From: a virus
UHGV virus genome: UHGV-1493261
DNA length: 64,000 nt
Strand: one strand, 5' to 3'
The position numbers and the translations under genes are program-made. Shown one piece after another: positions 51,709 through 55,490 of this stretch. Below the pieces are notes generated by a model that was not told where the DNA came from, searched no databases, and was given only the letters and a program-made list of their open reading frames with translations. Positions within the stretch are counted from its first letter, which is position 1. Every line of letters begins with the position of its first letter.

Positions 51709-52371
51709 TTATTTCTTGAATAAACGAAGGAACTTCATCATGTTGTCCATGAAAGTCGGCTTCTTGACCTTTTGTTTTACCGGAGCGCCCTGATCATTCA
51801 GAACACGACTGACCGGAGGAGTAGGCGGTGTCGGCGCTTTCGTTTCACAGGCCGGAACGATGTTCACGTCATGATGAGAAGACTCAGCTGTAGTGTTAAC
51901 AACATTGTTCTCCTGGACGACGACAGGCTTGACGAGATTCTTTTCATACTCGCGAGCCATGGCCTGGTACTTCCGATTCTCTGCGTCAAAGTCCATAGAA
52001 ACGACTTTACGACGGCGGCGCGTCGCGCTCTCATCACCATAGAAATCGTATCCGTTCTTGACCAGCCAGTGTACAGCTTGGACAAATGAATGGAAGATCA
52101 TGAACGGCTGGCCATTACCCTCTTCAGCAGCGGTGATGCCGGTGTAGCCCATGAGCACAACCTGACCCTTTACGTCGAGGTCAAAGGATGTACATTCACC
52201 GTGCTGGTTCAGATCACGCGGAGCCAGCTGGGAATCACGATGGATATAATTCGGCGACAAAAACTCATTCAGAGTTCGTTTGTTGCCTTTGTATTCAAAC
52301 AGACGAATACAGATGGGAGTTGTCAGTTCATGCCATTCGGCATCGTTGACCCAGATAGAAACATTACGCAT
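51709..52371 (-). CDS. Hypothetical protein
   Basis: 220-aa ORF; Pro/Thr-rich linker and basic C-terminus. Confidence 0.5.
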   Translation of the reverse strand: MRNVSIWVNDAEWHELTTPICIRLFEYKGNKRTLNEFLSPNYIHRDSQLAPRDLNQHGECTSFDLDVKGQVVLMGYTGITAAEEGNGQPFMIFHSFVQAVHWLVKNGYDFYGDESATRRRRKVVSMDFDAENRKYQAMAREYEKNLVKPVVVQENNVVNTTAESSHHDVNIVPACETKAPTPPTPPVSRVLNDQGAPVKQKVKKPTFMDNMMKFLRLFKK

Positions 52372-52471
52372 CGGTGTATCCTCAAATCAATGGATAGGGG
52401 TTTAACGGTTAAATTTTAAACCATTCTATCTCATTGAACAAATACAGAATGGGAAGGATGGACAAAAGAAA

Positions 52472-52500
52472 GCCGGATAAGGACATCCGGCTATACCACA
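52472..52500 (-). terminator. Intrinsic terminator
   Basis: Minus strand AGCCGGAT-GTCCTT-ATCCGGCTTTCTTTTG, downstream of the tRNA island. Confidence 0.55.
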
Positions 52501-52709
52501 TCGATGGGATGGGTTGAAAGACTACACGCTTGCACTGGTACTGCCTTATGGGAGAGCGCGTCAGGAGTCGAACCTGAAGTCGTAAGCGTAGAGAAAGCTA
52601 TTTGCATTTCACTATCCCCGCTCCGATTTTCTTAACTTCCTAAACACCCCGATTACGAGAGAGTCGACATGCACATCTTCTAACTCTTCAGGAAGTCACG
52701 CCCGTAATT

Positions 52710-52798
52710 TGGCGGAAGGTGAAGGATTCGAACCTTCGGGGGCTAAAAGCCCCACTCGATTAGCAGTCGAGTCCCTTAAACCTCTCGGGCAACCTTCC
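52710..52798 (-). tRNA. tRNA-Ser (anticodon GCT)
   Basis: Manual cloverleaf: acceptor GGAAGGT/ACCTTCC, anticodon loop CTGCTAA, long variable arm GGGGCTTTTAGCCCC, T-loop GGTTCGAATCC, encoded CCA. Confidence 0.7.
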
Positions 52799-53016
52799 AA
52801 TTTGGACGGGCTTCGCACCCGATTGAGCATTTGATCTGCCGTAGCCCAACTCCCCGCGCTTCACAGCGCCGATTGGTTAACTGGTGACCAGTGCCTTCTG
52901 GTTAGATCCCCTGGAACTTTACAGGCTTCGCGCCCAACCATTTCTGGAAGTTGAGGCATCGTTTCCGATGTGGAGTCCCCTCATTTTACACAGCTGGCTG
53001 CAACGCTTACCGTGTT

Positions 53017-53100
53017 TGGTGTGAGTGGATGGATTCGAACCACCGCGCTGTTACGGGGAGATTTACAGTCTCCTGCATTCGACCGCTCTGCCACACTCAC
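53017..53100 (-). tRNA. tRNA-Tyr (anticodon GTA)
   Basis: Acceptor GTGAGTG/CACTCAC, anticodon stem GGAGA/TCTCC with loop CTGTAAA, 12-nt variable arm, T-arm GGTGG-TTCGAAT-CCATC, encoded CCA. Confidence 0.65.
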
Positions 53101-53216
53101 ATTTGGTGGGTGTTACTATCGTCGTCTTCGGATTCCGTTCGGCTATTGGACGTCGCTTCAAGAGCTTGTCGGTCGCGTACTTCTTGCCTATTCACTTTCG
53201 TTCACACCCATAATTC

Positions 53217-53291
53217 TGGCGGTGCCTCAAGGACTCGAACCTTGCTATCACGGATTAACAGTCCGCCGCTTCACCATTTAGCTAAAGCACC
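53217..53291 (-). tRNA. tRNA-Asn (anticodon GTT)
   Basis: Acceptor GGTGCTT/AGGCACC (one G-U), anticodon loop CTGTTAA, T-arm CAAGG-TTCGAGT-CCTTG, discriminator G, CCA. Confidence 0.7.
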
Positions 53292-53299
53292 TGAATATT

Positions 53300-53375
53300 T
53301 GGCATGCCCTCCAGGACTCGAACCTGGGTTGTACGGTTTTGGAGACCGACCTCATAGCCGCCAGATCAAGGGCAC
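53300..53375 (-). tRNA. tRNA-Trp (anticodon CCA)
   Basis: 76 nt with canonical numbering: T-arm CCAGG-TTCGAGT-CCTGG, anticodon loop CTCCAAA, acceptor GTGCCCT/AGGGCAT, CCA. Confidence 0.7.
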
Positions 53376-53443
53376 ACACCTTACAACGAACTATACTGTA
53401 TAAAGGTTATTGAAACAAACGTTTATTTTATTCAACCATAATA

Positions 53444-53520
53444 TGGTGATCCTGATTGGGTTTGAACCAATGACCAATGAATTATGAGTTCACTGCTCTA
53501 ACCGACTGAGCTACAGGACC
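53444..53520 (-). tRNA. tRNA with CAT anticodon (elongator Met or Ile-lysidine type)
   Basis: Acceptor GGTCCTG/CAGGATC, canonical D-arm TAGCTCAGTCGGTTAGAGC, anticodon loop CTCATAA, T-arm ATTGG-TTCAAAC-CCAAT, CCA. Anticodon stem lacks initiator features. Confidence 0.7.
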
Positions 53521-53736
53521 AAATTATTGTGTGACCAACCAAGGACTGTCAACCCTTTATCCCGTTTGTGCATGATCGGTTCATGCAGGCCTCTTTGTGC
53601 TGCCTCACGGCATGCGCTTCTGTTGGTCATTGGCTTACACTGTGGCCTCACAACAGGCGTTTATTTTTCCAGGGCTTTCCACTTGCAAGTCTTGACCATA
53701 CAGGGATACGGGCTTGCAAGATCGGGTTGGACACAA

Positions 53737-53811
53737 CTTTGATGGCTCTGGTATTAAAGATCCCGCGTCACCCATAGACATGGTTTATAAATCCAGAGCC
53801 ATCAAAGTTGC
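53737..53811. repeat. 18-bp perfect inverted repeat around a ~39-nt AT-rich spacer
   Basis: CAACTTTGATGGCTCTGG (53737-53754) and its exact reverse complement CCAGAGCCATCAAAGTTG (53794-53811). Confidence 0.7.
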
Positions 53812-55490
53812 AACCAATGTCGTAACTCGCAGCTTCCATACAGAAGCAACTTGTCCTCTAACACTCGGACCAAACGAGGCTGGCTGGTTGATTCAGAGCC
53901 GCTGGTTGATTCAGCAAGCATGGGTTGATAGCCCGGCAACATAGAATCACCCAATGCTCTCTCAAGTTCATAAATCGAAGTGCCCTGACTCAACAGTATG
54001 GCCCAATATGCTGTTATCGTCCACCGGATTGGCCGCCCAATTTGTAGATCAACCTTTGGGTTTAAGATAAATTGCCAAGGCACTTCGATTTGTGTGCCCT
54101 TCACCTGCCAGGGATCAGGGCTGATGGCAAGACTTCGCTCACATCTTTCAAGATACTCGTGAGAATATCCTCAAAGATGTGGTGCCGTTTTAGGGAGTCG
54201 AACCCAAATGTTCGGCCAGCGCTGACCTTACATCCCATCTGACTTAGGCAACCCACCTCTGCTTACTCAGGAGCTTATCCCCTTTGGACAGTCAGATGTA
54301 ACGGCATTTTATTTAACAATTCATTCAACTGATAACTTCAGGGGACCACTCTCATCTCCCCACATTTCGACCGCCCGGGACGGTTTAGTGGTACGTCACT
54401 TGGTCTGTTACATGGTAGGAGCCGATTCTCCCTCGAATTACCTCTTGTTCGTATGCCTACAAACAATTTCACAGATTGCTGACAAGTTATCATGTGAATG
54501 AATTGTCATTGTATGCCCTGACTTATTAATCACATCTCAGGGCCGCGATGCGCCAGATTCTGTTACAGGGAACTGGAATACCCCGCTGACTTATAGGCTA
54601 TTACGCCGCCATCAGAACTTCGGAATCATTAGCAGTTATTTGCTTGGTCAGTTTCTAAAAACCCGCAAAGTCACGCACAACGAAAACGAAAACCTGTTTG
54701 AGTCCTAAACGTACCTGTCTTAGTCTCACAACGCTATGAGTGGCCAGGACTCAAACAGCTTGCCGTTCAGTAGGTTAACTATACTTTGTAACCCGTTATT
54801 GATAAAACTTTTTATTTTGTTGGCGAGGGTGTCACCATCGATTTACCGGAACTTACGCATCCGGCCTCGCCTGTTGGTGCTCCTTCGAATCCGGGAAGAT
54901 CAGTAGGAACTATGAATCAAGTTAATTCAACCAACAGGAACCTTGTTGCCCTTTGACGCAACATTATGAACCCTCTGTGAAGACTCATAATGTTGTCGGC
55001 GTGATGGAGATTAGCGCCCCCGACCTCCCCTTGTGTTGGTGTCGACTTGCCAACGGGGTGCTCTCTGATTCTGAGCTAATCACGCTACAACAGGGAGTTT
55101 CGTTCTCCGACGGTCAAGTGCGTCCACTGACACCATGCAAGGTGGATATTGACTTATGGAGCCGGAGTCCTCGTCCTAGGACTGTGCTTGGCCTCAGCCT
55201 TTACACCGCTGGTAGCCCGACTCTTTACACCATAAAATTTACTATACTACAGCCCAACTAATTTGAAAAGTCCTCTCCTCTTTGAGCTACACTGCCCACA
55301 GCAGTGCGGACGAACCTGAACTCAAAACCGGATGCGCCGAAGTGGGCGCCTGTTTACCGGACTGATCGGGTCGACCCAGGAGAGAGCAGGTAATCCCGAT
55401 CAGAAGGATGAGGAGTAACATCATGTAAAACATAGTGTTCCCTCCCTTCCATGCAAATAACTTTACTGCAATTATTTATTGAATAAAGCG

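Follow-up and report, generated by a model that had tools for sequence, protein, structure and literature searches.

The locus considered here raises two questions: why a phage should keep five transfer RNA (tRNA) genes of its own, and whether these genes are all that this part of its genome encodes. It is located in the virus genome UHGV-1493261, analyzed as one stretch of 64,000 nucleotides (nt; the window, to which all unqualified positions refer), and by its similarity to sequenced phages the window is assigned to an Agtrevirus (Ackermannviridae, Vi1-like myophage). The answer favored here, with good if not complete confidence, is an Agtrevirus tRNA operon in which five genuine tRNAs would be co-transcribed with conserved tRNA-like or CCA-ended RNAs, the tRNA with the CAU anticodon being of the Ile2 type and the set topping up the host pool for a part of its codons. 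A preliminary description made from the sequence had placed five minus-strand tRNA genes here, each with an encoded CCA and a canonical T-loop, and was correct in all these points: ARAGORN and the Rfam tRNA covariance model (RF00005; gathering score 29) agreed with its coordinates and anticodons. Rejection by covariance tools or different anticodons would have refuted the description; the covariance search accepted all five genes, and the anticodons given by ARAGORN are those of the description. The genes are as follows (each called by both programs and with CCA encoded; scores are those of the Rfam model):

52710-52798, minus strand: tRNA-Ser (GCU), long variable arm, 56.0 bits
53017-53100, minus strand: tRNA-Tyr (GUA), class II with long variable arm, 57.3 bits
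53217-53291, minus strand: tRNA-Asn (GUU), 61.4 bits
53300-53375, minus strand: tRNA-Trp (CCA), structurally deviant, 43.8 bits
53444-53520, minus strand: tRNA with CAU anticodon, best read as tRNA-Ile2, 70.6 bits

ARAGORN found exactly five tRNA genes in the whole window, all on the minus strand, and the Rfam E-values (2e-13 to 5e-6 for the whole window) were far beyond chance. In the order Ser, Tyr, Asn, Trp, CAU, the encoded 3' ends were GCCA, ACCA, GCCA, GCCA and ACCA, the T-loops UUCGAAU, UUCGAAU, UUCGAGU, UUCGAGU and UUCAAAC, and the 7-nt anticodon loops CUGCUAA, CUGUAAA, CUGUUAA, CUCCAAA and CUCAUAA. All five had the features of canonical tRNAs, i.e. a T-loop of the form UUCRANY, an anticodon loop of 7 nt in which position 33 is U and position 37 a purine, and a 3' NCCA, while the invariant U8 and A14 and a D stem of 3-4 bp were present in the Ser, Tyr, Asn and CAU tRNAs. 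The five tRNA genes are genuine and of the bacterial type. The order of transcription on the minus strand is CAU, Trp, Asn, Tyr and Ser-GCU, and the genes add up to about 400 nt within a conserved non-coding array some 1.85 kb long.

The region matched 277 phage records, essentially all of them Ackermannviridae (phages of Salmonella, Escherichia, Klebsiella, Dickeya, Shigella and Enterobacter). The best match, with 98.7% identity, was the Agtrevirus Salmonella phage vB_CECAV_050 (PQ306799), whose GenBank record has tRNA-Ser, Tyr, Asn, Trp and Met annotated in the corresponding positions; because the same five genes are annotated in so close a phage, the cluster was already known. The Ackermannviridae clusters of PQ306799, Det7 (NC_027119), Sajous1, MK-13 and Klebsiella phage May have the same locus, order and strand as the window, and in all of them the locus lies between a pyridoxal phosphate (PLP)-enzyme/hypothetical gene block and the baseplate module. 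The tRNAs show no essential difference from the annotated ones, the window containing a compact version without small open reading frames (ORFs) or an HNH endonuclease between the tRNAs and with G14 in its tRNA-Trp. A core of Ser, Tyr, Asn and CAU tRNAs recurs in Agtrevirus, Kuttervirus (Det7, fGh-Ecl02) and Taipeivirus (May, KWBSE43-6); tRNA-Trp was found in a subset of relatives (Sajous1, IME250), and other members have extras, such as Gln, Ser-UGA, pseudo-tRNAs, small ORFs and an HNH homing endonuclease. The tRNA island is, in short, correct, ordinary and already annotated elsewhere, and by itself it changes nothing, such clusters being routinely annotated in Vi1-like phages.

For the CAU tRNA the preliminary description had left AUG and AUA as alternative codons. 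Identity determinants together with codon use resolve this ambiguity towards AUA: the gene very probably encodes a tRNA of the Ile2 type which would read AUA, after lysidinylation, and not AUG. The assignment was based on determinant positions and BLAST. The acceptor stem GGUCCUG/CAGGAUC contains C4-G69 and C5-G68, which in the E. coli system are positive determinants for the lysidine synthetase TilS, while tRNA-Met carries the TilS antideterminants U4-A69 and A5-U68 (PMC2500205, PMC11947777). Further down, the CAU tRNA has G27.U43, A30-U40 and U44, and the determinants of TmcA, the tRNA-Met acetyltransferase, are missing (C27-G43, C30-G40 and G44); TmcA needs C27-G43 and G44, and G27.U43 with U44 act as its antideterminants (PMC2500205). 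In comparison with the two E. coli elongator CAU tRNAs every tRNA-Ile2 discriminator was present, A73 included. With E. coli tRNA-Ile2 (ileX/ileY, lysidinylated by TilS) the phage tRNA shares C4-G69, C5-G68, G27.U43, A31-U39, U44, the variable loop UGGUC, the T-loop UUCAA, A73 and the anticodon loop CUCAUAA, with 59 of 77 positions identical and one gap; it differs by U-A instead of C-G at 3-70 and by a D-loop longer by one nucleotide. T4 tRNA-Ile has G2.U71, C4-G69 and C5-G68 in common with it. In a BLAST search against 5,426 E. coli genomes, 12 rows were sampled along the ranking, and each of them was a 76-nt tRNA-Ile(CAU); the median number of matching places per genome was two, which agrees with the presence of ileX and ileY. 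The gene is identical in Agtrevirus and Kuttervirus (this window, Det7 and fGh-Ecl02), whereas the Taipeivirus version has two compensatory anticodon-stem pairs which bring it to C29-G41/G30-C40, the E. coli Ile2 state, and several GenBank annotators have labelled the orthologue tRNA-Ile.

An elongator tRNA-Met reading AUG would agree with the label given by ARAGORN and with the tRNA-Met annotated in PQ306799, Det7 and other records, and the similarity to E. coli metT/metU (58 identical positions) is close to that with tRNA-Ile2 (59), but three gaps were needed to achieve it. Moreover, C4-G69 and C5-G68 stand exactly where tRNA-Met has its TilS antideterminants, G27.U43 and U44 stand where TmcA needs C27-G43 and G44, the sampled E. 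coli matches were tRNA-Ile(CAU), and the phage is enriched in AUA and not in AUG, which makes an elongator tRNA-Met quite improbable. An initiator tRNA-fMet was ruled out by comparison with the E. coli fMet sequence. An initiator has an unpaired C1 x A72 and three consecutive G-C pairs at 29-31/39-41, whereas the phage tRNA forms a G1-C72 pair and has GUGAA/UUCAU as its anticodon stem. Having the E. coli TilS determinants, the CAU tRNA would be lysidinylated in the host and would read the rare Ile codon AUA. The "Met" gene in many Ackermannviridae records is, accordingly, most likely an AUA-reading tRNA-Ile2, which alters codon-usage reasoning on these therapeutic and biocontrol phages.

The codon usage of 64 non-overlapping long ORFs from the window (~18,000 codons) was compared with that of 47 ORFs selected in the same way from a 50-kb segment of E. 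coli K-12; the phage side covers 64 of ~152 kb of the genome, and the host side is a sample of 47 genes from an organism that may not be the true host. The ratios of phage to host, followed by those for four baseplate/tail-spike genes and, where given, by the rank among 31 two-codon boxes, were:

UAY (Tyr): 1.46x; 1.78x; 4th of 31
AAY (Asn): 1.33x; 1.46x; 5th of 31
AUA (Ile), counted alone: 1.8x; 3.0x
AUG (Met): 1.0x; 0.66x, which fits Ile2 rather than Met
AGY (Ser): 0.74x (AGC 0.64x); 0.89x; 28th of 31
UGG (Trp): 1.15x, about neutral; 0.64x

Compensation of host codon bias, suggested previously for the whole set, was thus in agreement with the ratios for Tyr (UAY), Asn (AAY) and Ile (AUA), but not for AGC/AGU, UGG and AUG. 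It is partly supported, explaining just three of the five tRNAs. For the accompanying suggestion that the set serves late, highly expressed genes no support was found: nothing ties the tRNAs specifically to late expression, and the sole promoter-like site nearby is of the sigma-70 type. Most plausibly, the tRNAs would top up the host pool for those codons that are commoner in the phage than in the host (UAY, AAY and AUA).

The two tRNAs that codon use leaves unexplained, Ser-GCU and Trp, favor another role, namely counter-defence, in which the phage tRNAs would replace host tRNAs cleaved or depleted by anticodon nucleases or tRNA-targeting immunity instead of matching codons; PrrC, RloC, colicin-E5-like, VapC, PARIS, retron PtuAB and Schlafen-type agents were considered. 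Queuosine tRNAs, Tyr and Asn among them, are targets of colicin E5, which is in line with this role, and the tRNA bodies are only 57-77% identical to their E. coli cognates, which might allow escape from nucleases that read the body. The idea has been published for phage tRNAs as a class, with resistance to host anticodon nucleases, colicin E5 being named, proposed to be achieved via mutations in the anticodon loop (PMC10264068). This signature was absent: in each of the five tRNAs the 7-nt anticodon loop matches that of the E. coli K-12 cognate exactly and, in the case of tRNA-Asn, the whole anticodon arm is identical to that of asnT. Furthermore, we know of no specific defence directed against this set of tRNAs. 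Counter-defence is, on balance, unlikely; Ser-GCU and Trp could be explained by simple replenishment or by an escape from enzymes that recognize the tRNA body.

The second question, whether the locus encodes anything else, has a less ordinary answer. The preliminary description missed that the spacers are conserved structured RNAs, and the real lead lies outside the coordinates of its island: an unannotated, covariation-supported family of tRNA-like RNAs in what would be the same operon. Four tRNA-like or CCA-ended units were recognized besides the tRNAs:

52549-52703, minus strand: TLE (tRNA-like element), a 155-nt tRNA-like RNA directly downstream of tRNA-Ser
52799-53016, minus strand: S1, a 218-nt spacer RNA between tRNA-Ser and tRNA-Tyr, several hairpins with GAAA or UUCG-type loops
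53101-53216, minus strand: S2, a 116-nt spacer RNA between tRNA-Tyr and tRNA-Asn, ends GGGUGUG/ACACCC predicted to pair
54180-54305, minus strand: TLE2, a 126-nt tRNA-like RNA ~650 nt upstream of the tRNAs

TLE was exposed by an alignment of seven phages. Its 5' GGGCGUG pairs with 3' CGCGCUC in a 7-bp acceptor-like stem (52703-52697 with 52560-52554), preceded on the 3' side by a perfect T-arm UCAGG-UUCGACU-CCUGA (52577-52561) and followed by the tail UCCCA. In the model, a 6-bp D-stem-like helix encloses a hairpin whose GUGCAU loop is invariant. Then come an invariant GG, a long "anticodon-arm" hairpin, its AAAUGCA loop also invariant, and some 6 nt of variable sequence before the T-arm. For the 5' end there is, in each lineage, exactly one 7/7 partner at a distance of 149-158 nt: in Kuttervirus the pairing is GAGUGUG/CGCACUC, in Taipeivirus GGGGUAU/GUACCUC or GGGUGCG/CGCACUC, and in a fourth group GGGUGAU/GUCACUC. 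Of the 28 pairs predicted by RNAalifold, 19 showed double changes of the compensatory kind. When the cloverleaf-like model was scored, 86% of the cells were paired compared to 40-54% with slid partners, and double changes were present in 22 of 38 pairs compared to 5-13 in these controls, and not one shuffle out of 500 reached the observed values. The same helices were obtained in the minimum free energy (MFE) fold of the single sequence, and all of them, together with the invariant loops, are kept at an identity of 70-77% between genera. Position 3-70 is an invariant G-C in 21 sequences and G2.U71 is found in 13 of the 21. Because G.U pairs, T-loops and CCA tails are strand-specific, the conserved structure is that of an RNA, and not of the DNA, on the tRNA strand. 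In three dimensions, the two invariant UGCA-containing loops could kiss (both GUGCAU and AUGCA are invariant, and the May lineage alone extends the pairing by one pair), and the T-loop could form an elbow with the invariant GG.

Neither ARAGORN (as tRNA or tmRNA) nor Rfam called TLE, and a covariance model of its own, R1, which scores the members at 81-176 bits, detected a single copy in the window; the Dickeya and Serratia IME250 stretches examined gave none. BLAST with the TLE region returned 231 phage records, in which it is almost never annotated; 19 of these, from Dickeya phages, match the 3' trailer only. The fourth group mentioned above consists of ~110-kb IMG/VR contigs related to SSU5-like phage-plasmids (L134-L148, e.g. 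L146:8005-8162), and TLE was also found in 29 non-mobilizable Klebsiella plasmids of 108-116 kb; in the phage-plasmids it sits ~400-500 nt from tRNA-Phe and tRNA-Gln genes. Judged by these matches, the TLE family spans virulent myophages and temperate phage-plasmids. Searches of viral contigs with gapped motif patterns agreed on the same 24 loci, while an exact 15-mer scan was too unspecific, yielding at least 120 mostly unrelated contigs. A motif scan of bacterial genomes revealed no chromosomal TLE at the stringency used and a single 607-bp contig. This contig (NZ_JAALLN010000140.1, L149), from a Flavobacterium poyangense assembly, has TLE and S1 at ~94% identity to Ackermannviridae and is probably a phage contamination of the assembly.

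The acceptor stem stacked on a UUCGACU T-arm and the ...CUCUCC-CA 3' end resemble the tRNA-like domain of transfer-messenger RNA (tmRNA), where the paired ends likewise form an acceptor stem coaxial with the T-arm and the remainder is inserted in place of the D and anticodon arms; the invariant GG could complete the likeness by forming an elbow with the T-loop. TLE as a miniature tmRNA, or as an aminoacylatable tRNA mimic acting on the ribosome, is nevertheless hardly credible: the invariant 3-70 pair is G-C and not G.U, the tail is UCCCA and not NCCA, ARAGORN finds no tmRNA, and 155 nt, half the size of a tmRNA, is too short for pseudoknots plus a tag. A short closed tag frame is absent as well in the window and in Vi01, the frame from the sole GCA "resume" codon crossing the T-arm in the former and never closing in the latter. 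The tmRNA assignment was rejected on these grounds, and so was homology to T4 RNA C, since R1 scored T4 rnaC at 17.8 bits (E 0.026), similar to T4 tRNA-Leu (17.0) and far below the members.

S1 and S2 look like CCA-ended stable RNAs from their sequences. The 3' end of S1 is a hairpin CGGG-UGCGAAG-CCCG followed by UCCA-AAUU directly before tRNA-Ser; in its hairpins the stems are preserved although the loop sequence varies (GUGAAG replaced by UUCG or UACG), and two pairs are compensatory. It is 90-98.6% identical in 206 full-length phage records, unannotated in all of them, and the possibility of a small-protein gene was discarded, as the sole 21-codon ATG frame is broken in relatives. S2 ends with ACCA-AAU directly before tRNA-Tyr and has no canonical T-arm; its terminal helix is predicted in both the MFE and alifold structures, with no double compensatory changes. 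Across Agtrevirus, Kuttervirus, Taipeivirus and Serratia IME250 the identity was 85-98% for S1 and 85-100% for S2, both being more conserved than TLE and than the coding DNA nearby (79-84%). TLE2, which is unrelated to TLE, was found as the fifth copy of a tRNA 3'-end repeat family. It has an acceptor-like stem GCCGUU/AACGGC, the tail ACCA, a T-arm UUGGG-UUCGACU-CCCUA and a 9-bp inner helix CAUCUGACU/AGUCAGAUG; alifold predicted 41 pairs, four of them compensatory. The element occurs in 199 phage records, with 90-99% identity in 194, and nearly always lacks annotation. Each tRNA-like element is found in ~200 or more GenBank records and unannotated in those examined, including all of the Ackermannviridae cluster records examined, and literature searches on tRNA-like RNAs in Ackermannviridae found nothing. 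An Rfam 15 cmscan of 51800-54200 at E <= 10 gave no family for TLE, S1, S2 or the hairpins, its output being the five tRNAs, antisense plastid-UTR (untranslated region) matches over two of them and chance-level miRNA/sRNA matches; TLE2 had no Rfam match at the gathering threshold in the one whole-window scan covering 54180-54305.

The tRNA-like elements and conserved spacers might be decaying tRNA pseudogenes and processing scaffolds that lack a function of their own, kept only because the locus is young or horizontally spread; relatives do carry pseudo-tRNAs, odd tRNA-like genes and homing endonuclease insertions at the same locus, and S1, S2 and a further structured domain, LS, are too similar between genera (85-98%) for covariation to prove structure, which fits recent exchange. 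Yet TLE has diverged to 70-77% with its helices kept by the 22 double compensatory changes and its loops invariant, and it is present in an unrelated type of replicon, the 29 Klebsiella phage-plasmids of ~110 kb, at most ~500 nt from tRNA genes. In addition, the non-coding blocks are 90-96% identical in genome pairs whose neighbouring coding DNA is 79-84% identical. That these blocks are more conserved than the coding DNA beside them, and that the helices of TLE are kept, indicates purifying selection, and decay is rather unlikely. A wider interpretation, which we regard as tentative and put at slightly below even chances, is that the five tRNAs are the sole recognizable members of a ~1.85-kb minus-strand RNA array (~52465-54310), shared across Ackermannviridae, with at least two undescribed families of tRNA mimics (TLE and TLE2) in addition to the CCA-ended S1 and S2, all of which would act in trans on a tRNA-binding host factor. 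Freed by the tRNA-processing machinery, the mimics might be decoys for tRNA-targeting defence nucleases or toxins or, alternatively, titrators of RNase P, the CCA-adding enzyme or EF-Tu. The engagement of a tRNA-binding host factor is a working guess that we hold with low confidence.

A common transcript for tRNAs and tRNA-like RNAs is suggested by the organization of the locus, for which two signals are relevant:

52492-52462, minus strand: intrinsic-terminator-like hairpin AGCCGGAU-GUCC-UUAUCCGGCU followed by UUCUUUUGUC, at the end of the RNA operon
53552-53523, minus strand: sigma-70 promoter-like site TTGACA-18-AATAAT (11/12)

The hairpin is kept in the close relatives L001 (vB_CECAV_050) and L002, and equivalents are annotated after the RNA cluster in May and KWBSE43-6. 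Read-through from upstream is likely because no minus-strand terminator-like site was found from 56256 to 52492 and because 11 promoter-like sites lie upstream where 3.3 would be expected. One such site, at 54335-54306 before TLE2, was discarded: it directly adjoins the 5' end of the RNA, and its sequence differs among relatives. Host RNA polymerase would make one polycistronic non-coding transcript ending at the terminator-like hairpin, and host RNase P, RNase E and exonucleases would cut out the individual RNAs, as suggested by the CCA ends and the A/U-rich punctuation after the units. Every unit ends with NCCA (UCCC in TLE), followed by an A/U-rich linker, except for TLE2, which runs straight into a hairpin at 54140-54181; this is the layout to be expected of pieces released by RNase P, cutting at the 5' end of the following unit, together with trimming of the 3' ends.

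There are precedents for such an arrangement. The closest analogue is the tRNA cluster of T4, which is polycistronic, located on one strand and has a CAU tRNA-Ile among its members. Small stable non-tRNA RNAs lie at the 3' end of that cluster: RNA C (species 1, 139 nt), with paired 5' and 3' ends and a perfect terminal T-arm CCGGG-UUCGAAU-CCCGG, and RNA D (species 2, 119 nt), ending in ACCA. By analogy with the release of RNAs C and D in T4, TLE, TLE2, S1 and S2 could be co-transcribed with the tRNAs and freed by tRNA processing. There is no detectable homology between T4 RNA C and TLE, R1 scoring RNA C (17.8 bits) like an ordinary tRNA; the T4 set is different as well (Gln, Leu, Gly, Pro, Ser, Thr, Ile and Arg), and its Ile lacks the encoded CCA that all five tRNAs of the window have. 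The likeness is one of position and architecture, i.e. an analogy and not membership. The function of RNAs C and D is still unknown (PMC3014915, PMC9697503), and the present locus offers an enterobacterial system for the 50-year-old question of what stable RNAs of this kind do. On the host side, in the E. coli tyrT operon tRNA-Tyr is followed in the same transcript by the ~170-nt RtT/RttR small RNA, which according to its annotation is freed by tRNA processing. S1 follows the phage tRNA-Tyr in the same way, albeit it is phage-specific, with no Rfam RtT match in the scanned stretch at E <= 10.

Several observations weigh against the operon reading or parts of it. Just 2 nt separate the -10 of the near-consensus promoter-like site at 53552-53523 from the first base of the CAU tRNA, and because of this gap a normal start from the site would fall inside, and truncate, that tRNA; the site might act for the genes further downstream or have partial function only, and its -35 is kept in most, but not all, Agtrevirus and Kuttervirus relatives. 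The codon top-up is contradicted by the depletion of AGY and the neutrality of UGG, into which Ser-GCU and Trp do not fit, and by the lack of phage tRNAs for the most enriched boxes (AGR, UCY and AAR), in addition to the restricted samples described above. The Ile2 assignment has to accommodate a G-C pair at 29-41 where E. coli tRNA-Ile2 has C-G. Finally, tRNA-Trp, judging from its weak predicted structure and G14, may be impaired. It is the weakest of the five, with two Watson-Crick pairs only in the D stem and a U27.U43 mismatch, and the Rfam scan flagged both the D-stem and the 27-43 pairs as non-canonical. Position 14 (window 53362) is G, versus A in vB_CECAV_050, Sajous1 and IME250, and this G could reflect a sequencing error or else a harmful change in a tRNA that is weak anyway. 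At the same time, tRNA-Trp keeps G73 and the CCA anticodon, and its acceptor stem covaries in comparison with Serratia phage IME250.

A stretch of 29 nt on the tRNA strand (54091-54119) was 76% complementary to the 5' half of tRNA-Trp (53350-53378; inverted repeat I2), which could be due to chance or to an antisense interaction inside the same transcript.

The plus-strand ORFs overlapping the island had already been regarded as artefacts, and the analysis gave the same result. The 150-aa plus-strand ORF 52951-53403, antisense to three of the tRNAs, had no PHROG family, and the longest plus-strand frames over the island varied in place and length in six relatives. Upstream, the 100-aa minus-strand ORF 53802-54104 likewise had no PHROG family, and ORFs between TLE2 and the tRNAs have no family and are placed on different strands by different GenBank records. 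The whole stretch 53553-54310 appears to be non-coding. It contains the following further conserved structures:

53727-53817, minus strand: hairpin HP1 with a perfect core of ~19 bp (inverted repeat I1)
53969-54094, minus strand: structured domain LS, closed by a 19-bp long-range helix (I3)
54140-54181, minus strand: 19-bp hairpin between TLE2 and the tRNAs

HP1 has six compensatory pairs between Agtrevirus/Kuttervirus and Taipeivirus, and five further ones were found in the 200-nt leader region. The LS structure is a prediction, with 90-98% identity in relatives and no compensatory pairs. A perfect 14-nt direct repeat GCTGGTTGATTCAG with 18-nt spacing was noticed at 53883-53914 (plus-strand coordinates), in a conserved non-coding block (family D5). 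The array as a whole is flanked on one side by conserved phage families of unknown function and on the other by the baseplate and tail-spike module.

By comparison of the relatives, the locus is a hotspot of tRNA-like turnover. In MK-13 and EspM4VN the place of the CAU tRNA is taken by an 80-nt "tRNA-Undet" (L003:4438-4517 and L009:4489-4568), and an 84-nt element, Ile-gat according to ARAGORN, occurs in relatives (L003:3285-3368 and L004:2832-2915). Det7 has a "pseudo tRNA" at the same locus (L007:1914-2002), while in Sajous1 an HNH endonuclease abuts the CAU tRNA.

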